Shown here: piece after piece, positions 2,385 to 52,512 of the stretch
Position numbering within the stretch: the stretch's first letter is position 1
How the letters are laid out: each line of letters opens with the position of its first letter
Origin: Pseudomonadota bacterium
GTDB lineage: Bacteria > UBA10199 > 2-02-FULL-44-16 > JAAZCA01
Direction: 5' to 3'
Assembly (NCBI GenBank): GCA_043798915.1
Contig: JAZDOG010000102.1
Location: 14,249 to 78,248, forward strand
Length of the DNA stretch: 64,000 nucleotides
Program-made: the position numbers and the translations under genes
Notes under the pieces: model-generated
The model's input: the letters and a program-made list of their open reading frames with translations, nothing else
What the model was told of the DNA's origin: nothing
Database searches by the model: none

Positions 2385-2395
2385 TGGGAAGTGCT

Positions 2396-2485
2396 CCCTC
2401 CCTTTATAAGGGAGGGATGGGGAGGGTAGACCGTGTATTAGCACGATCTACCCCACCCTGACCCTCCCCTTACAAAGGGGAGGGA
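2396..2485. repeat. family-1 triple-hairpin palindromic repeat, copy 1
   Basis: ccctccctttataagggaggg / atggggagggtagac...gatctaccccaccc / tgaccctccccttacaaaggggaggg: three consecutive hairpins. The same architecture and near-identical arms occur at 14712, 16271, 20744 and 43169. Confidence 0.85.
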
Positions 2486-2680
2486 AGCGTCCGTTAAAAC
2501 CGTCAAAATTCTGACGGTTGGCCCCCTTTCTGCCACCCCCCCAAAAAAATAATTAAAAAAGTACGCAACAAATTTTGAGATCTGCCGATACCACTAGTGG
2601 AGGCTGCCGTGTGAATGTCCGGCGCTCCATCGGGTGGGAGAGGGAATAACATAAACAACGACACACGAAGGAGGGTTCAG

Positions 2681-14711: not shown

Positions 14712-14811
14712 CCCCCCTCCTTTGTAAGGAGGGGATGGGGGAGGTAGATCAGAGGTGAATCTGTTTCAAATATCTACCCCACCCTGACCCTCCCCTTACA
14801 AAGGGGAGGGG
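14712..14811. repeat. family-1 triple-hairpin repeat, copy 2 (between atpD and atpC)
   Basis: cccccctcctttgtaaggagggg / atgggggaggtagat...atatctaccccaccc / tgaccctccccttacaaaggggagggg. Confidence 0.85.
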
Positions 14812-14829
14812 ATTAAAGCCCCTTGATTT

Positions 14830-16365
<1,536 letters not shown>

Positions 16366-16372
16366 TTAAAAA

Positions 16373-20743: not shown

Positions 20744-20840
20744 TCCCCTCTCCTTTGTAAGGAGGGGCTGGGGGAGGTAGATATCGCATCTCTGGAAGGT
20801 CTACCCCACCCTGACCCTCCCCTTACAAAGGGGAGGGGAA
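20744..20840. repeat. family-1 triple-hairpin repeat, copy 4 (between parB and bactofilin)
   Basis: cccctctcctttgtaaggagggg / ctgggggaggtagat...ggtctaccccaccc / tgaccctccccttacaaaggggagggg. Confidence 0.85.
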
Positions 20841-37497: not shown

Positions 37498-37682
37498 GAC
37501 ATGCCTCCTTTTATAGATTTTATATTAGCACAAACGCCCGTTTCTATCGAGGGCGGCGCAGTATACACCTTTGCGATTGCCCGTCAAGCCTTCGCCCGCA
37601 CATGCACAACAGGGGCTCAAATGCGGCTATTTTGCCTTTTGAATGATTGACAGGTACGCATTGGCGGGGATATGAGCCGGAC

Positions 37683-39047
37683 ATGCGTGAGTTGGGCGTG
37701 GGCGACACGATCTGCGCGATAGCGACCCCGCCGGGGCACGGCGGCATCGGGGTCGTGCGGATAAGCGGTGCGGATGCGCGCAGGGTCCTGGCTTCGGTCT
37801 GGCGCGGCCGCGTGGCGGTGTCCGATTTCGAGCCGAGGAGGCTCTACTTGGGCGATGTCGGGGTCGATCGCGTGATGGCGGTCTTCATGCCGGCGCCCGC
37901 TACCTACACCGGCGAGGATGTGGTGGAACTCTCGGCCCACGGATCCCCCGCGGTCCTCCGTCAGATCATGGAGGGCTGTCTTGCCTCCGGCGCCAGGGCG
38001 GCAGGTCCTGGAGAATTTACGAGAAGGGCGTTCGTGGCCGGCAAGCTCGACCTCGCACAGGCAGAGGGCGTCGCGGACCTCATAAACGCGACGAGCGAGA
38101 GGGCCGCGAGGCTGGCCGGCGAGCAGCTCAAAGGCGCGCTCTCGGAGAAGGTCTCCGATGCGGGGGATGCCCTCGCAACTTTGCGCGCCGAGATCGAAGC
38201 GGGGATAGATTTTCCTGAGGAAAATCTGGAGCAGCGCGCGATGGGCGATGTCATCGATCGCCTGCAAGATATTGCATCGAACCTGAAGATCCTCTCGTCG
38301 ACATATGCCGGAGGGCGCCTGATCCGCGAGGGCGCGCGCGTGGCTATCGTCGGCCGCCCGAACGCCGGCAAGTCGAGCATCTTCAACCGCCTCGCCGGCG
38401 CTGACAGGGCCATCGTCCACCATGAGCCGGGGACCACGCGCGATGTGGTGGAGGAACAGATATCGCTCGGCGGGCTTTCGTTCAGGCTCCGCGACACGGC
38501 GGGGCTTCGGGCAAACGCCGGCGAAATCGAGGCGATCGGCGTGGGCCGCGCCCGCGAGGAGATCGCCGCAGCGGATATCGTCGTAGCCGTCTTCGATGGC
38601 TCGCGCGCATGGGACGGCGAAGATGCCGAGCTCATGGCCACGCTCGATCCTCGACGATGTATCGCGGTGATCAACAAGTGCGACCTTACCCTCGCGTTCG
38701 ATCCGGAGAAACTTCCCGTGCTGAGCGGGGGCATAAAACCGCTGCATCTCTCCGCAAGGACCGGATCGGGCATCGAGTATCTTGCAAGCCAGCTCGTCGG
38801 ATGCGCCGCAGCGGATGCGGGCAAGGCCGAAGGCGTCATGGTCGCGAGCGCCAGGCACAAGGCGCTCATCGACGAGGCCCTCCTCGCCATCGACGCCGCA
38901 CAGAACTCGCTCGAAAAAGGCGAGCCGGCCGAATGCGCGGCGGCAAGAATGCTCGCCGCGCAGGATGCGCTGGGCTCCATCACGGGCAGGGTGACAACAG
39001 ACGACATCCTCGACCGGATATTCTCGACCTTCTGCATAGGCAAGTGA
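37683..39047 (+). CDS. mnmE: tRNA modification GTPase MnmE
   Basis: ORF track 37647..39047; conserved sequence begins around the ATG at 37683 ([22 protein letters not shown]). [10 protein letters not shown]1 motif, DTAG, NKCD, terminal FCIGK. Confidence 0.94.
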
Positions 39048-39054
39048 GCCTAAT

Positions 39055-41025
39055 ATGAAATACGACATCATCATCATAGGCGCAGGACACGCCGGCTGCG
39101 AGGCCTCCCTCGCCGCGGCGCGGATGGGCGCCCATGTGGCGCTTGTCACGGCGAGGCGGGACACTATAGCGGCGATGAGCTGCAATCCTGCGATCGGGGG
39201 ATTGGCCAAGGGCCACATCGTCCGCGAGATAGACGCTCTCGGCGGCGAGATGGCCCGCGCCGCCGACGCCACTGGCATACAGTTTCGCCGCCTCAACATG
39301 AGCCGCGGCCCGGCGGTGCGCGCCACGCGCTGCCAGTCCGACCGAAAGCACTACCATCTCTATATGCGGGCGGCGATCGAGGCAGAGGAGAACATCGATA
39401 TCATCGAGGCTGAAGCAGTTGCGCTTTTGACAGACCCCTCCCCCTCGATGGGGGAGGGCAAGGGTGGGGGTGATCTTGGCAATCGCGGCCACCCTCACCC
39501 CGACCCTCTCCCCTCAAGGGAGAGGGAAAAGAGTGTCATCAAGGGCGTTACGATAAAAGGCACGGGAGAGGTCAACCCGAAGCAGGAACTCAGCGCATCG
39601 CGTGTCATCGTCACGACCGGTACTTTTTTAAACGGCCTGCTTCATTTCGGAATGGAATCGGGACCCGGCGGTCGCATCGGCGACCACGTCGCCGGCGGCC
39701 TCTCTGCATCGCTCGCATCGCTGGGCTTCGCGCTCGGTCGACTCAAGACCGGTACTTGTCCCAGACTCGCGCGCGACACCGTCGACTTCAGCGTCTGTGA
39801 GCGCCAAGATGGGGACGATCCACGGCCGCGCTTCTCGGACGACGATGTGGGGAATATGTTGCCTGAGCTCCCCTGTCACATCACGTACACGACGCCGGAG
39901 ACGCACGCCGTGATCCGGGCAAATCTCTCGCGCTCTCCGCTCTACAGCGGCCGCATCAGGGGAACAGGGCCCCGCTATTGCCCCTCGATCGAGGACAAGG
40001 TCGTCCGCTTCGCCGAGCGCGACCGTCACCAGCTCTTCCTTGAACCGGAGGGTATCGACACCGACTGGATCTATGTGAACGGCCTCTCGACATCACTGCC
40101 GCTGGACGCTCAGCGCGAGATGTTGAAGACGATACCGGGACTGGAGCACGCAGAGATAGTGCAACCCGGCTACGCCGTAGAATACGATTTCGTCCCTCCC
40201 ACGCAGCTCAAGGCCACGCTCGAGACAAAGCTCGTGGACGGCCTCTATCTCGCCGGACAGATCAACGGGACGTCCGGCTATGAGGAGGCGGCGGCGCAGG
40301 GGTTGATCGCCGGAATCAACGCGACGTGCGCACTGCGCAAAGAGGGCGAAATAATCCTCAGGCGTGACGAATCGTACATCGGCGTCCTCATCGACGACCT
40401 CGTCACGAAGGGAACGGACGAGCCGTACCGCATGTTCACATCGAGGGCGGAATACAGGCTCCTGCTTCGTGAGGACAACTCCGCAGAGAGGCTCTCTCCG
40501 CTGGGACGGAAGCTGGGCCTGATAAAGGACGAGAGGTGGCAAAGATTCAAAGACAGACAGGAGGCGCTGAAACGAACCATCTCGATCCTCAAGGAGACGG
40601 CGGTGGCACCCACGACGGAGACAAACGCCGCGCTCGGCGCGATGGGGAGCTCCTCGCTCAAGAAACCGGCCTGCCTCGCCGACCTCGTGGCGCGGCCCGA
40701 GCTCGGCATCAGGGAGGTCCTCTCCGCATTCGCCCCGCACGCGATCACGAAAGACTACGGAGGAATGCTGGAGAGCGCAGAGATGGACACGAAATACGCC
40801 GGCTACATCAGGGCCGACCTGGAGCGCGTCGGAAAATTCATGCATCTGGAGGAGATAGGGATTCCCGCCGACTATGAATATTCCTCTACACATGGCCTCT
40901 CGGCCGAGGCGCGCGAGAAGCTCTCGCGTATCAGGCCGGCGACTCTCGGGCAGGCCTCGCGGATTCCGGGGATCACTCCCGCGGCCATATCCGTGCTCAT
41001 GGTGGCCCTTGCGTCGAGGCGCTGA
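39055..41025 (+). CDS. mnmG: tRNA uridine 5-carboxymethylaminomethyl modification enzyme MnmG (GidA), carrying a 33-codon repeat-derived insertion
   Basis: [18 protein letters not shown] motif, [39 protein letters not shown] and the C-terminal ...[13 protein letters not shown]. See the repeat feature at 39436-39534. Confidence 0.95.
39436..39534. repeat. triple-hairpin repeat (family-1-related variant) embedded in frame in mnmG
   Basis: cccctcccc-ctcgat-gggggaggg / caagggtgggggtgat...gccaccctcacccc / gaccctctccc-ctcaa-gggagaggg. 99 nt, translated as [33 protein letters not shown]. Confidence 0.75.
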
Positions 41026-43125: not shown

Positions 43126-43168
43126 CTATCAGATGCTGACTTTGGAGGCAAGCCCCGTCAACAGCGCA

Positions 43169-43258
43169 CCCTCCCTTTGTAAGGGAGGGATGGGGAGGGT
43201 AGACCACGGATATTTCGCACGATCTACCCCCTCTAACTCCCCCTTACAAAGGGGGAGG
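43169..43258. repeat. family-1 triple-hairpin repeat, copy 5
   Basis: ccctccctttgtaagggaggg / atggggagggtagac...gatctaccccc / tctaactcccccttacaaagggggag. Confidence 0.8.
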
Positions 43259-43262
43259 ACTA

Positions 43263-44198
43263 TCATTCCAAGTGCTGGATACAGCCCTTTGTGAGGCCCA
43301 GACGGTGCAGGGCATCCTCCGCCTCGGCGAATTCTGCCTTCACGACCTTCCGACCGAGGATCGGATCGCCAACCGCCTGGTCCGCCGGAAAATACTGGCT
43401 CATGAGGTTGACCGGCACGTCGGTCGAGAGCTCGCCCGCGATGAACTCGAATACTTTTTCGGATGACGCGAAGCCTCCGGGCAACACGAGGTGGCGGATC
43501 AGGAGGCCGCGCCTGCCTATCCCCTCGCCGTCCATCTCAAGCGGCCCGACCTGCCTGAACATCTCCTTCACCGCAGGGCGGACGTGCTCCCAATAGTCCG
43601 GCGCATCCGAGCATCTCGCCGAGGCATCCCTCGTCGCATACTTGATGTCGGGCATGTAGATGTCGACCACCCCATCGAGGAGCTTGAGCGCCTGCATCCC
43701 GTCGTATCCGCTGCAGTTGTAGACGATCGGGATGCAAAGCCCTTCTTTCGCAGCGATCGCAAGCCCGGCCAGGAACTGCGGGACGACGTGCGAGGGCGTG
43801 ACGAGGTTGATGTTGTGCGCGCCGCGCTTCTGGAGATCGAGCATCATCCGCGCGAGGGCCTGCGGGGGTGCGGGCCGCCCGTGGCGAAGCCGGCTGATCG
43901 GGTAGTTCTGGCAGAAGCGGCAGTGGAGGTTGCAGCCCGTGAAGAAGATCGTGCCAGAGCCGCGCGTCCCGGATATCGGAGGCTCCTCTCCAAAATGGAG
44001 ATTCGCGCTGGCCACGCCGGCAACTTTGTCCGTCCTGCAGACTCCGGGCTTCCCATGAATGCGGTCGACCGCGCAGTCGCGAGGGCAGAGCCGGCAGCTT
44101 TTCAGCGCCGCATATGCCCGCCCAACGCGGCGGGAGAGTTCTCCTGAGGGCAAGAGGTGGAGATATGAAGGATATGATTTAGCTGAATCAGTCACCAT
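43263..44198 (-). CDS. radical SAM protein, PflX-like (pyruvate formate-lyase activase-related)
   Basis: 311 aa; N-terminal CRLCPRDCAVDR cluster and the radical SAM CNLHCRFCQN motif. Confidence 0.8.
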   Translation of the reverse strand: MVTDSAKSYPSYLHLLPSGELSRRVGRAYAALKSCRLCPRDCAVDRIHGKPGVCRTDKVAGVASANLHFGEEPPISGTRGSGTIFFTGCNLHCRFCQNYPISRLRHGRPAPPQALARMMLDLQKRGAHNINLVTPSHVVPQFLAGLAIAAKEGLCIPIVYNCSGYDGMQALKLLDGVVDIYMPDIKYATRDASARCSDAPDYWEHVRPAVKEMFRQVGPLEMDGEGIGRRGLLIRHLVLPGGFASSEKVFEFIAGELSTDVPVNLMSQYFPADQAVGDPILGRKVVKAEFAEAEDALHRLGLTKGCIQHLE

Positions 44199-44640
44199 AC
44201 GACTCTGTTATGATCTGTCCGGCCTTGTAGTCGATGGTCACGCGGAACTGCCTGAAAAAATCGAGGCCAATGAGCGCGTCGATGCCCCAGGATTTTTCAA
44301 AGTGAGAGACATAGACCGCCAGACTCTTCATCGCACAAGAACATGCTTCTATATGAGGCAAAACAATTTGGCCGTATTTTTGGGTCTGCAATCCTGGTTT
44401 CAATTGAACATTCGGGTTTGTGTCCTCAAGGAAACCAAGATGTTGGAGAACTTCGTCAGAAAATTCTGTAGATGGGGCCCCTGTATCGAGAAGCGCAATA
44501 CAATCTCGTTTCCTGCCATTCTTACCTTCTACATAAATTTGAAGGAGGATATATCGACCCTGAGTATCAAACGCCGTGACATTGCGCATGGGCCCTCCAC
44601 CCCCCAGGAAACTGGCTTTCTCCTGTATATCGAAAAGCAC
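44188..44640 (-). CDS. single-domain retropepsin-like aspartic protease
   Basis: ALLDTGAPSTEFS active-site motif and ALIGLDFFRQF. ~130-150 aa (alternative ATG at 44589). Overlaps the PflX-like start by 11 nt and the upstream DUF5678-like gene. Confidence 0.75.
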   Translation of the reverse strand: MLFDIQEKASFLGGGGPMRNVTAFDTQGRYILLQIYVEGKNGRKRDCIALLDTGAPSTEFSDEVLQHLGFLEDTNPNVQLKPGLQTQKYGQIVLPHIEACSCAMKSLAVYVSHFEKSWGIDALIGLDFFRQFRVTIDYKAGQIITESYGD

Positions 44641-44809
44641 AGTCCTTATCTATCGCAGGCAATTGGTAAACCTCGTTCTTTTCGATAGAATGCCTTTGCA
44701 CCACCCCCTCAACTATACAACCAAGCGAATTGGTCTTATAGTCGGTGATCAGCAACCACTCGTCCGGATACGCCTTCTTCATCTCTTCCCAAGTCATCCT
44801 TTGACCCAT
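44567..44809 (-). CDS. DUF5678-like small protein (usual partner of small retropepsin-like proteases)
   Basis: MTWEEMKKAYPDEWLLI...VVQRHSIEKNEVYQLPAIDKDCAFRYTGES matches the remembered DUF5678 pattern (MTWEE..KYP.QWV.I...H....DEVY.......F...YTGE). Confidence 0.65.
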   Translation of the reverse strand: MGQRMTWEEMKKAYPDEWLLITDYKTNSLGCIVEGVVQRHSIEKNEVYQLPAIDKDCAFRYTGESQFPGGWRAHAQCHGV

Positions 44810-44902
44810 GACGTCCTCCTTCTTGTTCGATCTTGCCCAATTCTACGGCTGTGGCCGTTTACTTATCAAGGAGAATTTCGGAACTATCCGTCACTACAAA
44901 TT

Positions 44903-45175
44903 TTACGCTGCCCGTTTATTGAACACAGCCTTTTCAAGTTTCTGCAGCCTCTCCATGATTGTCGAGGTTTCATCCACAAGTATTTGTCGAAGCATTTGAT
45001 TGAGGACTGTCTGATACCTTCCCCCAGATTTGTTCGCCAATTCCTTCAGGGCCTTAAGAACGTCCTCATCAAGATACGTTGTCACGCGAATCTTTGTGCC
45101 GCGAAGCTCATACCTAGACATTTTTGGCCCGGATATTCTTTTCATCTTATTTGGATCTGGAATTTTCTTTTTCAT
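44903..45175 (-). CDS. brnA: BrnA-type antitoxin (CopG/RHH-like)
   Basis: ORF track 44903..45250; likely start at the ATG at 45175 (MKKKIPDPNK...). C-terminal ...RVTTYLDEDVLKALKELANKSGGRYQTVLNQMLRQIL is the typical BrnA end. Confidence 0.75.
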   Translation of the reverse strand: MKKKIPDPNKMKRISGPKMSRYELRGTKIRVTTYLDEDVLKALKELANKSGGRYQTVLNQMLRQILVDETSTIMERLQKLEKAVFNKRAA

Positions 45176-45452
45176 AAAATTTCCTCCATTTGCGCCACCT
45201 GGCGGCGCCGAATATTCTGACGGTCTTCCCTCTGACGGTATAACGCACAATGATCACTGTGCCTTTTAACGTTTTTCCCACAGCATAGAACCTGTCTTCC
45301 TCTGATGAATGTTTTTCATCTTCCAAATGTATAACCTTCGGATCAGCGAATACCTCAATTGCCTCCCGAAACATCACCTTATGTTTGGAAACATTCTTCA
45401 GCTCTCTATAAATGTCCCACTCAAAAGCCAAGCTCATACTATGATTATACAT
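45147..45452 (-). CDS. brnT: BrnT-type toxin (DUF497)
   Basis: FEWDIYRELKNVSKHKVMFREAIEVFADPKVIHLEDEKHSSEEDRFYAVGKT...VRIFGAARW matches the BrnT signature (FEWD..K...N..KH.V.F.EA..VF.DP). Confidence 0.85.
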   Translation of the reverse strand: MYNHSMSLAFEWDIYRELKNVSKHKVMFREAIEVFADPKVIHLEDEKHSSEEDRFYAVGKTLKGTVIIVRYTVRGKTVRIFGAARWRKWRKFYEKENSRSK

Positions 45453-45576
45453 ATATTATATGTATAATGTCAATGTCCTTATTGAGATTGCACCGGAAGC
45501 TTGGGCTCTAAATAAAGCTCGACAATTAAGCTCAATATAGGTAATCTTTAACCAATATTAAGGCCATTCTGCTTCA

Positions 45577-45954
45577 ATGGAAGCGCAAATGAAACATTTA
45601 ATCGTGTCACTGAAGACTTCAGATGAAGTCCTCGATGAATTCAAGAAGGCTTTCCGCAAGGCCAAAAAGGGGAAAGTTAAAACTCCTCATTTTGAAATCA
45701 GCTTCGACAATAAAAGAGACTTCGACCGATTCGTGCGTAATCTCTATATCTTGAAATACATCCTCATTTTCAAACCGAAGTCGGTCTATGAGTTGGCCAA
45801 GATAGCCAAGATCGATGTGTCGAATTTGAACAAGGTAATGCTTTTCTTCGAAGAAGTAGGGGCCATCAAGGTCAAGACGATTAAAACATCCGGCCGCGAA
45901 GTCAAAACGCCCACGGTGGCATACGACGCCATAGAATTTAAACTGACGGCTTGA
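45577..45954 (+). CDS. predicted winged-helix DNA-binding protein (COG4190/antitoxin-like), no adjacent partner
   Basis: 125 aa (alternative ATG at 45589). ...ISFDNKRDFDRFV.....YILIFKPKSVYELAKIAKIDVSNLNKVMLFFEEVGAIKV resembles the HTH antitoxin-like family usually paired with a small toxin gene. Confidence 0.6.
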   Translation: MEAQMKHLIVSLKTSDEVLDEFKKAFRKAKKGKVKTPHFEISFDNKRDFDRFVRNLYILKYILIFKPKSVYELAKIAKIDVSNLNKVMLFFEEVGAIKVKTIKTSGREVKTPTVAYDAIEFKLTA

Positions 45955-46076
45955 GACACGTGGCAGGCCCCAACTGCTCCGGGACCGATGGTTCGAGACT
46001 GATGGTTGACAGTCAGTTGTTTTTATTAATCAGCTGCGCAAAGAGACTGTCTGGTGTCCAAACTTGATCCTTCTTT

Positions 46077-47540
46077 TCAATCAATAGGCAGCACATCACT
46101 TTTTTTAGCCTTTATGCGTTCAACTGTGTTTACGGCCTTTCGAAAGCATGGATGGATTTGAACTTCCTCAAAACGGGGTTCATGACGTTCCTCATTAGAA
46201 TAATAAATTTTGCTTCCACCCTCTCCCCCCTTCACAAAATCACCCAAAAACCCGATTTCATAAAGTACTCGCATAAAAGCTCTAATGTCAGTGCTCTCAA
46301 CAATTTGGTTCCACCATTGCGCATTCAATTCCACTCCTGCTGCAAGTTGCAGCAGCATATCTTCAACCTCCATCTTCGACAAATGATATTTATGGCGAAA
46401 GAATTTCGTCTTCCAGTAGTTGAAGATTGCCACAAGACCCGGATATTGGTTTGAATACTCCGCGCAAAGGTCGTCCAGCTTCCATGATGAATATGGGCCT
46501 TCTGATGCCTTTAGCGCATCGGCGCTCGGCAGTGCTCCTTCAACAGATTCCGTGTAGTACCTTGCCAGCTGAATGAGCTCCCTGGGCCTGCCAAGTGTGC
46601 GCTCAACGAGCCAATTATCAGCATTGCTAGTTCCAATTGTGACTGGAAACACAGTTGAGAAGGGAGATTTCTCGGCTAGTAAGTTGTGGCAAACTCTATT
46701 ATAGTTTATTCGCTGATGGAGAATATTTAACAAGTCTTCCTTGTTCCAACGAACGCGCTCAATATTTCTATACTTGTCTGCGTGCTGCGTTTTTGTGATA
46801 AGAATGGAATATACATCTTCACGCATAAACACACATGTGAAAATGTTAGGCGATCTCCCAGAGAGATAATTTGTTGCAGCCAGGAGACCAAGGAGCATAT
46901 TGTTCGCGGTTAAAGAATTATCCCAACCCAGATCAAGATCATCGATCAATACAACAAATTTACCACCATCATTAGCAATCTTCTGCATATGGTGTTCAAG
47001 GGATTCAACTTCCGCAATACTACGAAGTTCTCGCTCTACGTTGATTCCAAATTCTCCCAAGGATCCAACCTTGCCTTTAACTTTAGCAAGAATATCGGCT
47101 ACATTCTCAACGAGGTCTTTTGAGGTGCGGTTCAGTTCCACTGCAATGTGTCGCGCAAATTCGATGCTGTCTTGGGCAAACTGACCTTTAGCTTTATCAC
47201 CAACGACGCACAAAGAATCGAGTAGTATCTGGCGTAGCCAAACATGTTGAAAAAATATCTCCTCACCGAAAGTGTCAACTATATCTTTTTCATTAAGAAC
47301 GCTCTTGATTGAATTATATTTGGGCGAGATATTAATAACGAAAGTATTAGCTTGATCTTGGAAGTTCTGTTCGAGCTTTTTTCTAAGAGCGCTCTTGCCT
47401 GAACCTTTGCGACCGATGACGATGCATTTGCTCTTTTCATAAATACGACGAAACGCATCTGAGCTAACAAAATATTCAAGAAGATTGGGATCTTTTTCTG
47501 CGCTATCATCGCCCCATTGAATATCTGCGATCTTCATCAT
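46077..47540 (-). CDS. orphan P-loop NTPase (487 aa) with an uncharacterised C-terminal half
   Basis: Walker A GRKGSGKSAL, Walker B FVVLIDDLDLGWD. aggagg SD before the ATG. The gene is AT-rich, unlike the surrounding core genes. Confidence 0.8.
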   Translation of the reverse strand: MMKIADIQWGDDSAEKDPNLLEYFVSSDAFRRIYEKSKCIVIGRKGSGKSALRKKLEQNFQDQANTFVINISPKYNSIKSVLNEKDIVDTFGEEIFFQHVWLRQILLDSLCVVGDKAKGQFAQDSIEFARHIAVELNRTSKDLVENVADILAKVKGKVGSLGEFGINVERELRSIAEVESLEHHMQKIANDGGKFVVLIDDLDLGWDNSLTANNMLLGLLAATNYLSGRSPNIFTCVFMREDVYSILITKTQHADKYRNIERVRWNKEDLLNILHQRINYNRVCHNLLAEKSPFSTVFPVTIGTSNADNWLVERTLGRPRELIQLARYYTESVEGALPSADALKASEGPYSSWKLDDLCAEYSNQYPGLVAIFNYWKTKFFRHKYHLSKMEVEDMLLQLAAGVELNAQWWNQIVESTDIRAFMRVLYEIGFLGDFVKGGEGGSKIYYSNEERHEPRFEEVQIHPCFRKAVNTVERIKAKKSDVLPID

Positions 47541-47863
47541 GCCTCCTATTTGTCGTAAGACTTTCTCTTTTGCATCTGTACCAATTCAATGCCTTCAAGT
47601 CGAGGGTTCTTATCAGCTGGCGGCCGTTCATCTTGCCGGTTAGGGACCCATTTACACCACCACAGAGAGTTTGAATCCTTTTAATTTGAGCCTTCGATCA
47701 TTTCATGGGTATATAAACAGGGGATTTAAGCGGGACGCCGCTTTAAAGATTCCACAAGCTGGGATCCCCCGTCCAGATTGAACAGGAACAGGGGTTGTGC
47801 CAGTTAGCCGATGAGGTGCCTAATTGCACACGAAGGTTGCTCGCTATATGGAGTGGTGAAAGA

Positions 47864-48087
47864 GGGGATGACCTCATCAGGCACCTCGCGGAACGAACCG
47901 ATTTGGTCGGCGAAATGCCGCCGGTCGTGTTCCTTATGCTGTTCACGACGCCGAAGGCTGTTTGATCCGAGCGCTCAACAATCTGACGTTGATTCTGTTG
48001 AGCGCTCGGGAGTTGCCTGAGGCGAGGCGGCATGAGACCGTTACCAAATCGTGCGAGTGTAGCGCTGGTGCCTGGTGAGGTCATCCC
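47864..48087. other. inverted-repeat-bounded structured element (candidate ncRNA or MITE)
   Basis: A 21-bp closing helix joins 47865-47885 and 48067-48087 (one T.G position). Nested inside are helices cgatttggt/accaaatcg, atgccgcc/ggcggcat, gtcgtg/cacgac and the 14-bp hairpin ccgagcgctcaaca/tgttgagcgctcgg. A third partial copy of the arm is at 47809-47820. Confidence 0.5.
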
Positions 48088-50721: not shown

Positions 50722-51111
50722 ATGTCACTCAAAATAGTGAATACGGAGAAAGCACCGAAGGCGGTGGGGCCTTACAGCCAGGCGATCCGCGCCGGGGAGT
50801 TCCTCTTCTGCTCCGGCCAGATCCCGATCGATCCGGCCACCGGCAGGCTCGAGCTCTTCGACGGCAACGTCGCCGAGCAGACGAAGATCGTGATGACGAA
50901 TCTCAAAGCGGTGCTCGCGGCAGAGGGTCTGTCGTTCAAGGACGTGGTGAAGACCACGATATATCTCTCGGACATGGAGAACTTCGCCCAGGTCAACGAG
51001 ATGTACGCCTCGTTCCTCGGCGACCATAGGCCGGCGCGGGCGACCGTCGAGGTCGCCCGCCTCCCCAAGGATGTCGGCGTGGAGATCGACGCCATAGCCT
51101 GGGCAGGATAA
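50722..51111 (+). CDS. ridA: RidA family reactive-intermediate deaminase
   Basis: 129 aa; TEKAPKAVGPYSQAI, CSGQIPIDP, ...[23 protein letters not shown]. Confidence 0.93.
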   Translation: MSLKIVNTEKAPKAVGPYSQAIRAGEFLFCSGQIPIDPATGRLELFDGNVAEQTKIVMTNLKAVLAAEGLSFKDVVKTTIYLSDMENFAQVNEMYASFLGDHRPARATVEVARLPKDVGVEIDAIAWAG

Positions 51112-51250
51112 TGCCAATGGCATTGCAAAATAATGATAAAAATCAATATATTGAAAAGAAAAAACTCCAATAGTCATCATATCTCTTGATAACTACATAA
51201 AATGTGTATACGCTTATTATGTATACATAATAAGTATACGTGGAGTGCTT

Positions 51251-52381
51251 ATGAAAAATCCTTTTCGCTACGGCGTACCCGTAAGTGGCGATTATTATTT
51301 TCCGCGCCCTGATTTTTCGAAAAAACTTTCTCCCTATACCCTGTCGGGTCAGAAAATCCTTCTATATGGCCGCAGGAGGTTTGGAAAAACTTCGTTTCTG
51401 AAGGAGTACTCCGACACCCTCAAAGAGAAAGGCAGCGCGTCCGTATTCGTCGACGTCTATCCCATCACATCGTTGCGCGATTTCCTGCATGCCCTGTCTG
51501 CCGGCATAAAGGAGAGCGGGCTTCTTTCGACGACGGATCGAATGAAAGGGATCGTATTCGATCTCTTCCGAACCCGGCCACGACTCGCTGTGGAGGGAGA
51601 CTCCACTTCGCTCGATTTTTTCATTCCGTCGCTTAAAGACGACGATGTCAAATCCGCCATCGAAGATACGATCCGGCTCTTTGGAAAAATCGCCGAAGCG
51701 CAGCCGATCGTCGTCGTCTTCGATGAGTTCCAGAAGATTGCTGAAATAGATGACGCGGGATGGCTCGAGGGAACGCTCCGGAGCGAAATACAAAAACAGG
51801 AGGCCGTGCCTTACATATTCTGCGGCTCGCGGCGAGGCCTCATACTCGATATGTTTCAAAACTCTTCGAGACCGTTCTATCAGATGTGCACGGCCATAGA
51901 ACTCCCCCGCCTGCAGGATGATTTTGCGAAGTGGCTGCGCACAAAACTGCTCGGCGCAAAAGTCGCCATCGATTCTGAAACATCACTTGCCTTGCTGGAC
52001 AAAATCAATTGGAGTCCTAACTACGCTCAGATGATCGCATTTCACCTTGTAGCGGATCCTCCCGAAGGAAATGTCAGCGTCGATGATATTGAACGCGTCC
52101 TGGATGCGCTCTGCCAGCTGAACGGCTACACGTATATGACGCTCTACGATTCGCTCGGCGCAAATGCGCAGCGGCTCCTGCGCCTTGTCGCAAAAAATCC
52201 AGGCCAGAGCCCCTTCCGCCAGGAACTGATGGCAACATTCGATTTGAGAACGTCGGGCGTTCAGTCCGCCATTCGCAGCCTGATCAACAGACACATCCTG
52301 GATGACACGACGTCGGGCGGGAACGTTTATTTTGACGATCCGCTTTTTTCCAGATGGCTCAAGACCAGGTTGGGGTACTGA
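51251..52381 (+). CDS. ATPase_2 (archaeal-ATPase, PF01637-like) orphan AAA ATPase with C-terminal winged-helix region
   Basis: [18 protein letters not shown]...[14 protein letters not shown] (Walker A), VVVFDEFQ (Walker B). Preceded by a very AT-rich 140-nt region. Confidence 0.8.
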
Positions 52382-52400
52382 AGCGACCAAAGCGCACATC

Positions 52401-52496
52401 CTGGGCGACCACAGGCCGGCGCGGGCGACCGTCGAGGTGGCCCGCCTCCCCAAGGATGTCGCAGTGGAGATCGATGCCATAGCCTGGGCTAAATGA
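52401..52496 (+). pseudogene. duplicated 3' fragment of ridA
   Basis: ~96 nt with about ten mismatches to 51016-51111, encoding [31 protein letters not shown] versus [31 protein letters not shown]. There is no upstream ridA body. Confidence 0.85.
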
Positions 52497-52512
52497 CGCC
52501 GAAATTTGCGCG

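Follow-up and report, generated by a model that had tools for sequence, protein, structure and literature searches.

A BoxC-type inverted repeat within the mnmG reading frame of an uncultured bacterium, probably a tolerated insertion

The stretch considered here (the window) comprises 64,000 nucleotides of a contig from an uncultured bacterium assigned to the Pseudomonadota (assembly GCA_043798915.1, JAZDOG010000102.1, positions 14,249 to 78,248). It contains an intact mnmG (gidA) gene whose coding sequence is broken, with no loss of frame, by a 99-nt palindromic segment. Very probably, this segment is a tolerated in-frame insertion of a known repeat, the BoxC element of E. coli and many other bacteria, and it persists passively as a disordered loop of MnmG. 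By this account, an inverted pair of BoxC-type units, ordinarily a noncoding interspersed repeat, would have entered mnmG in this lineage at the codons of a tight beta-hairpin turn within the flavin adenine dinucleotide (FAD)-binding domain. With a length of 33 codons and an open frame, the insert would have kept the reading frame and so escaped removal by selection. Translation would then yield a Gly/Pro-rich disordered loop jutting from the tip of the hairpin, the remaining enzyme being unchanged. Rather than a functional module, the insert is most likely a passenger, either neutral or slightly deleterious.

The insert and its place in MnmG

The gene and the parts of the insert are as follows (positions are those of the window).

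39055..41025, plus strand: mnmG (gidA) coding sequence, intact, 656 amino acids (open reading frame, Pfam, PDB match, AlphaFold2 model)
39436..39534, plus strand: in-frame insert, 99 nt or 33 codons, Gly/Pro-rich loop, MnmG residues 128-160
39436-39526: element core within the insert
39436..39470, plus strand: left triplex unit, consisting of Y stem CCCTCCCCC (39436-44), loop TCGAT, R stem GGGGGAGGG (39450-58), loop CAA, and H stem GGGTGGGGG (39462-70)
39471..39491, no strand: spacer between the inverted units, serving as the apical loop of the central stem; its length and sequence vary among copies
39492..39526, minus strand: right triplex unit, with the minus-strand sequence CCCTCTCCC-TTGAG-GGGAGAGGG-TCG-GGGTGAGGG

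The first-pass annotation of this DNA, made from the letters alone, had placed the 99 nucleotides inside mnmG with the frame preserved, between ...AEAVALLTD and VIKGVTIKG..., and its coordinates, translation, and flanks all hold within an intact open reading frame of 656 codons. Pfam finds GIDA (2.5e-153) and both of the C-terminal MnmG domains, GIDA_C_1st and SAM_GIDA_C. Solved MnmG chains in PDB match the protein with an E value of 1.7e-189, and the alignment breaks at query residues 125 and 179, equivalent to chain residues 149 and 166, which leaves about 37 surplus residues in the query. Homology to MnmG thus lies on both flanks of the insert in one reading frame. All columns that are invariant across a 76-sequence alignment of homologues are kept, and so the gene is not degraded in appearance. 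The annotation went too far in calling mnmG essential, since E. coli remains viable when mnmG is mutated.

The segment was sought in the best 120 of 8000 scored MnmG homologues. Those nearest to the host's protein carry labels of Myxococcales or of deltaproteobacterial metagenome-assembled genomes (MAGs), and the nearest is 68-72% identical to the MnmG of the window. The insert segment (about 32-33 residues) is absent from all of the other 119. A search of a collection of 5.8 billion proteins with a 41-residue peptide of the insert yielded no candidate with enough words in common. The closest homologue has a two-residue turn in its place (..FLVE-SN-VICGI.., compared to ..LLTD-(32 residues)-SVIKGV.. 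in the window), and the same is true of E. coli (..LIVE-ND-RVVGAV..), for which the annotation had given only a few residues at the site. Because homologues lack the segment and because its nucleotide sequence is homologous to intergenic repeats (see the next section), insertion into a pre-existing gene is the only reasonable reading, and the segment is not native to MnmG.

A model made by AlphaFold2 with the 76-sequence alignment (mean predicted local distance difference test score [pLDDT], 92.8; predicted template modeling score, 0.93) puts the insert where the annotation had supposed that it might lie, on a surface loop. It joins strands 114-128 and 160-169 at the tip of a beta-hairpin of the FAD-binding domain, and residues 133-155 are the sole stretch of the protein with a pLDDT below 50, so the insert is predicted to be translated as a disordered loop. 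The model superimposes on the E. coli MnmG chain of the MnmE-MnmG cryo-electron microscopy structure (9HIP_C) with template modeling scores of 0.87/0.92 and a root-mean-square deviation of 2.5 Å. By alignment (with numbering via a +4 offset), the insertion site corresponds approximately to E131-D133 of E. coli MnmG. It falls within segment 100-160 of the FAD-binding domain and outside the residues of MnmG listed as contacting MnmE in the cryo-electron microscopy complex: 53-55, 82-92, 273-296, 427-437, 516-517, 548-555, and 608-622 (PMC12397908). A second beta-turn of the window protein, at residues 169-178 (approximately 39559-39588), is also longer than that of the closest relatives (S-G-RD). 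It contains no palindrome and could be either an ordinary indel or an older insertion that has eroded.

At the level of nucleic acid, the insert had been described as three consecutive hairpins. Two perfect 9-bp hairpins are present (39436-39444/39450-39458 and 39504-39512/39518-39526), as is a central stem, imperfect, at about 39462-39500, but each arm is really a three-strand triplex motif. The true layout is (Y-R-H)-spacer-(H'-R'-Y'), in which Y/R duplexes make up the outer hairpins and the two third strands, paired with each other, make up the "middle hairpin." Overall, the element forms an imperfect inverted repeat, matched by its profile on both strands over the full length. The string first given for the left arm was off by one base and should read CCCTCCCCC/GGGGGAGGG.

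The palindromes are well kept, with 29 of 30 stem positions still paired. Folding of the 111-nt region of the insert gives -64.1 kcal/mol as RNA (z = -4.5; none of 200 shuffles was as good) and -32.2 kcal/mol as DNA (z = -4.2). This class of element accounts for 12 of the only 18 perfect hairpins of at least 9 bp in the whole 64 kb. Three of the six reading frames are open through the element, so a stop-free, in-frame outcome is not improbable once selection has purged disruptive insertions. An Rfam scan of mnmG gave only microRNA-precursor-like hairpins, all below threshold (19-32 bits, compared to gathering scores of 50-105), which rules out a known structured RNA. An internal terminator is likewise ruled out, as a terminator and promoter scan produced nothing within the element.

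Kinship with BoxC and with other repeats of the window

BoxC or PIT elements were reportedly the subject of accounts by Bachellier and others in the 1990s and by Hoyne et al. in 2000. The BoxC repeat of E. coli is described, with its aliases PIT and TM_ECO, by Holder et al. 2015 (PMC4666352), where the TM_ECO pattern is given as 5'-CCCTCNCCC N3-6 GGGNGAGGG N3 GGGNGAGGG-3', a sequence of the intrastrand purine-motif triplex type that occurs 3610 times across 262 proteobacterial genomes. The 23 copies of E. coli K-12 are all intergenic, and at five loci two units lie in inverted orientation. The same paper reports no association of BoxC with a transposon, phage, or plasmid, and in the earlier work that it summarizes, BoxC acted in vivo neither as a promoter or terminator nor as a block to polymerase.

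The insert in mnmG appears by its sequence to be a canonical inverted pair of this already described class. It has the same succession of C-rich stem, loop, G-rich stem, 3-nt loop, and mirror G-rich stem, and its two units are arranged as at the five inverted loci of E. coli K-12. The exact TM_ECO pattern occurs once only in the window, on the minus strand at 39492-39526, i.e., in the right arm, with 0 occurrences expected by chance according to shuffles. The left arm deviates from the pattern in both of its G-rich stems (GGGGGAGGG and GGGTGGGGG rather than GGGNGAGGG). A single position is altered there in all three strands, converting an A.A-T triplet to G.G-C, and because the departures in the G-rich stems match the change in the C-rich stem, the triplet rule is kept. 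Compatibility with class II purine-motif triplets (G.G-C, A.A-T, T.A-T) is 9/9 in each arm. Over 34 arms from 17 elements, 290 of 320 positions are compatible, compared to 118-187 in controls with a displaced third strand, and the Y/R/H rule is kept among those arms by at least eight different stem sequences.

Homology to the E. coli repeats extends through nearly the whole insert. With the 111-nt region as query, blastn against 5426 complete E. coli genomes gave matches in 4040, of which 3634 cover at least 80% of the query at 74-77% identity (best E value, 3e-8 in 28 Gb). The best loci are the intergenic BoxC pairs between gabT and gabP and between hrpB and mrcB, aligned over 91-93% of the query (about 100 nt) with 74-77% identity. 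The latter is the position of TM_ECO 1 and 2 in Table 1 of PMC4666352. The differences from E. coli lie in the setting: the motif is reported as always intergenic there, whereas this copy lies within the coding frame of a conserved gene; the host belongs to an uncultured lineage rather than to the Enterobacteriaceae; and the five other copies in the window have other stem sequences (the TTTGTAA-type variant).

The element is also widespread outside E. coli. A metagenome scan with 21 specified bases, CACCCTCACCCCNNCCCTCTCCC, matched at least 120 contigs from many environments. Among the matches listed, nearly all run on through the unspecified loop into GGGAGAGGG, and about twenty have the full inverted-pair layout. 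The mnmG insert itself, used as query, found complete three-part copies on metagenome contigs, with E values down to 5e-11. The 21-base motif is present as well on large replicons of Azospirillum, Sphingobium, Sinorhizobium, and others. It also occurs on 67 viral or proviral contigs of IMG/VR (L182-L248), one of which, 86.7 kb in length, holds six copies; this may be relevant to the spread of the element across phyla.

Within the window, five intergenic repeats, here called family 1, resemble the insert.

2394..2487, plus strand: intergenic variant copy of family 1, TTTGTAA/TTACAAA type (nhmmer, E = 4e-26)
14712..14813, plus strand: intergenic family-1 copy (E = 3e-6 to the mnmG insert)
16271..16366, plus strand: intergenic family-1 copy (nhmmer)
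20745..20840, plus strand: intergenic family-1 copy (nhmmer)
43167..43261, plus strand: intergenic family-1 copy, more diverged (nhmmer)

The claim that the insert has the same layout as these five repeats is right insofar as all share the three-part arrangement. It fails insofar as the mnmG copy belongs to a different subfamily. A profile built from seven family-1 copies, with the mnmG copies excluded, recovers the insert at full length with an E value of only 7e-4, and a search with the insert alone recovers the family-1 copies of the window at 3e-6 to 4e-5. Similarly, the junction CACCCYGACCCTC, said to be shared by all, is exact in mnmG and in four of the five intergenic copies and is not in the fifth. 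Family-1 stems differ (e.g., CCCCTCCTT-TGT-AAGGAGGGG-CTG-GGGGAGGTA), yet they keep the three-strand rule, and preservation is as good in the intergenic copies as in mnmG.

The mnmG copy and family 1 are subfamilies of a single architectural class, represented in the 64 kb by one copy of canonical type and five variants. The possibility that the mnmG copy is merely a sixth member of family 1 was rejected: it is nearer to canonical BoxC (75-77% identity to E. coli copies), it has TCGAT/CTCAA loops identical to those of an element in a related metagenome locus (L178), and its nhmmer match to family 1 is only about 1e-3 to 1e-6. In family 1, the central stem has GTAG/CTAC at its base (GGTAGAT...ATCTACC), which is not the case for the canonical copy in mnmG. 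GTAG is the tetranucleotide tag of RAYT-associated REPs.

Inserts in related MnmG proteins and in other genes

The window is not alone in having an enlarged turn at this place. Of the 120 closest MnmG clusters, 31 have insertions of at least 8 residues in two adjacent beta-turns. Core positions 129-141, which span the two consecutive turns, hold 35 insert segments of that size, compared to 10 at all other internal positions. Four such inserts were checked at the level of DNA, and all four are repeat elements. In one syntenic locus (L001, whose MnmG, P0003, is 66% identical to that of the window), a family-1 element occupies the second turn (nhmmer, E = 4e-14). In another (L178, P0075), the element is of the same TCGAT/CTCAA subfamily as that of the window but lies in the second turn. 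The third insert checked (L177, P0031) is an element of the GGGAGAGGG type in the first turn, and the fourth, in an mnmG found blindly by the metagenome motif scan (L168), is a BoxC unit in the first turn. The remaining insert peptides (..LDSRLRGND.., ..IPAFAGMT.., ..LRQAQGE.., and ..VRPEPVEG..) look to us like translations of other common palindromic repeats. Taken together, the two turns of the FAD-binding domain would appear to be a recurrent landing site across uncultured lineages, which is a new point. A second is that an element described as always intergenic in E. coli lies here within the coding sequence of a near-universal enzyme. A literature search of limited reach turned up no paper on a BoxC-type element translated within a gene and none on the turns of MnmG as a recurrent landing site.

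The gene directly upstream may also receive such elements.

37647..39047, plus strand: mnmE, directly 5' of mnmG, with no insert in the window (open reading frame, Pfam)

In L001, mnmE (L001:6880-8367) has a 42-residue in-frame insert (..LPLCKGESEGVDRTVSTSPNPSLQRRGITDTIHGSRITLHGFHDK..) that contains an element at L001:7056-7143. The element is a triplex pair of family 1, and a short tandem repeat of the CACGGAT type follows it within the insert. Of the three copies of the element in the 22-kb locus, two lie inside genes and the third is intergenic. The position of a replication origin was considered as an explanation for targeting of the mnmE-mnmG region and dropped, since GC skew has no inflection there.

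Other genes are affected as well. Among the 120 metagenome sites listed, at least seven are in-frame BoxC sites flanked on both sides by Pfam domains. The proteins include a lipoyl-E3 protein (in its linker), UvrA, a CO-dehydrogenase flavoprotein (in an interdomain linker), a GT2 glycosyltransferase, a HemN-like radical-SAM enzyme, and an FHA-ABC transporter. Some environmental genes (metagenome loci L146, L062, and L093) bear several repeat-derived inserts together. In one UvrA there are four or more Gly/Pro-rich segments resembling BoxC, and a HemN-like protein has about ten tandem repeats of approximately 33 residues, TAPSPCKGETFE(S/P)ETVRAA(V/I)AATERDR, beside a BoxC unit.

Rickettsia palindromic elements (RPEs), of which Ogata et al. 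reportedly gave accounts in 2000 and 2002, are elements of about 100-150 bp in the AT-rich genomes of Rickettsia. Membership of the mnmG element in an RPE family is implausible from its composition and its host, and no relationship by sequence would be expected. RPEs lie in frame within unrelated housekeeping genes, at positions compatible with the fold, and are translated (reviewed in PMC10969869). The annotation had named them as the precedent, and the comparison is apt with regard to behavior only: here too an element sits in frame in a conserved gene at a structurally permissive surface position. Unlike an RPE, it is a pair of triplex motifs made of G/C runs and is found also in free-living bacteria of several phyla. 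Other in-frame intragenic precedents are provided by ERIC/RU, RUP, and NEMIS/Correia elements (Delihas 2007, PMC2759123). These belong to different sequence families, and the reported cases are mostly fusions at the ends of genes or lie in hypothetical genes, whereas the mnmG insert is in the middle of a universally conserved enzyme. RAYT-mobilized REP/BIME sequences and MITEs are short, structured, nonautonomous repeats present in many copies, and the mnmG element shares their overall inverted-repeat symmetry. Like MITEs, it has terminal inverted repeats. REP/BIME sequences are characterized by a conserved GTAG/CGTC tag and an associated RAYT gene; the mnmG element lacks GTAG, which is found only in the family-1 variant (GGTAGAT).

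Alternative explanations and other features of the window

The proposal that a palindromic element landed in a surface loop of MnmG and is tolerated there, already made in the first-pass annotation, accords with the absence of the segment from the listed homologues, its nucleotide homology to intergenic repeats, its predicted position at the tip of a beta-hairpin, and the independent insertions into the same turns. On this reading, a pre-existing and presumably mobile element would have been inserted by some copying mechanism, MnmG would be made and would be active with its extra loop, and the loop would have no function. Several observations weigh against it. The nearest homologue is only 68-72% identical, so none of those compared is a close relative with an empty site that would mark the exact boundaries or a target-site duplication. 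No convincing direct repeat was seen at the flanks of the six copies in the window or of those in L001 and L178. No transposase for the mnmG element, RAYT included, was identified, though the window was not searched systematically and RAYT was not searched for. No transposase or other mobilizing function is known for BoxC, and in E. coli the element is reported as always intergenic (PMC4666352). The canonical subfamily is represented by a single copy in the 64-kb window, and its near-perfect stems could indicate a young insertion or, equally, selection acting on the structure of DNA or RNA.

That last possibility leads to the idea that the insert has been domesticated, i.e., that the element or its structure is retained for a function. 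The structure of the mRNA (about -64 kcal/mol) might pace translation of the FAD-binding domain, or a triplex or cruciform in the DNA might act on replication or transcription of mnmE-mnmG, or the new flexible loop of the protein might bind tRNA or a partner. One would expect a disordered loop to evolve freely, and yet 29 of 30 stem positions remain paired; the two turns have acquired inserts repeatedly, in a quarter of the related MnmG clusters; and the mnmE of L001 bears an insert too. But the intergenic copies of the window are equally well preserved, so preservation of the stems is not specific to the coding copy, and the recurrent inserts belong to unrelated repeat families, occupy slightly different positions within the turns, and encode unrelated peptides, which argues for a permissive site rather than for a selected function. 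Considering also that the loop is predicted to be disordered and that BoxC did not act in vivo as a promoter, a terminator, or a polymerase block in earlier work (summarized in PMC4666352), domestication seems unlikely.

Still less probable is an error of assembly. A repetitive element on a metagenome-type contig is the sort of sequence that an assembler might misplace, but a misplaced copy would hardly have exactly 33 codons, be free of stops in the frame used, and fall precisely at a structural turn, and the same phenomenon is seen in independent assemblies (ENA, JGI, Logan, and NCBI). Moreover, the mnmG copy is unique in the window, leaving no local source for a collapse or chimera. It is harder yet to credit that the segment is a native, lineage-specific loop that only looks palindromic, or that mnmG is a decaying pseudogene. 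Ordinary indels do give rise to Gly/Pro-rich loops, but chance palindromy is excluded by some 100 nt of homology to the intergenic repeats of both E. coli and the window, and a pseudogene is at odds with an intact frame in which every invariant MnmG residue is kept.

A bolder version of events would make BoxC-type triplex elements currently active mobile DNA that crosses phyla and repeatedly enters coding sequence, with the turns of MnmG and the site in MnmE as preferred or selected targets, and would give the insert a role, perhaps in pacing the translation or folding of the FAD-binding domain or in modulating the mnmE-mnmG operon. We consider this doubtful. Were it true, it would amount to a general and unrecognized route by which protein loops evolve in environmental bacteria.

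Passive persistence of a tolerated insert, the reading preferred here, reveals no new biological system, and the case is valuable chiefly for the identity of the element and for the insertion hot spot of MnmG. Selfish DNA within protein-coding genes is familiar above all from Rickettsia, and the case would extend that phenomenon to another class of repeat, a very widespread one, in a host from an uncultured lineage of free-living type. The two adjacent beta-turns, with independent repeat insertions in roughly a quarter of related lineages, would provide a natural map of insertion tolerance in MnmG, useful for engineering tags into the protein. For annotation and alignment pipelines, there is also a caution: repeat-derived Gly/Pro-rich peptides in proteins from MAGs may be real and not frameshift errors.

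Two other regions of the window may contain inserted or foreign DNA. At 50725-52500, the last 90 nt or so of a gene of the RidA/L-PSP family (50725-51111) are repeated with 89% identity at 52399-52500, and the repeats bracket an AT-rich segment of about 1.28 kb that contains an ATPase_2/AAA gene (51245-52381). The segment looks like an insertion accompanied by duplication of the 3' end of its target gene. A similar ATPase_2 gene is present in the related locus L178. Another ATPase open reading frame, resembling AAA_16/ORC-CDC6 (46077-47540), lies within a block of low GC content at 44000-48000 (0.44-0.46, compared to about 0.6 elsewhere), which may be a foreign island.

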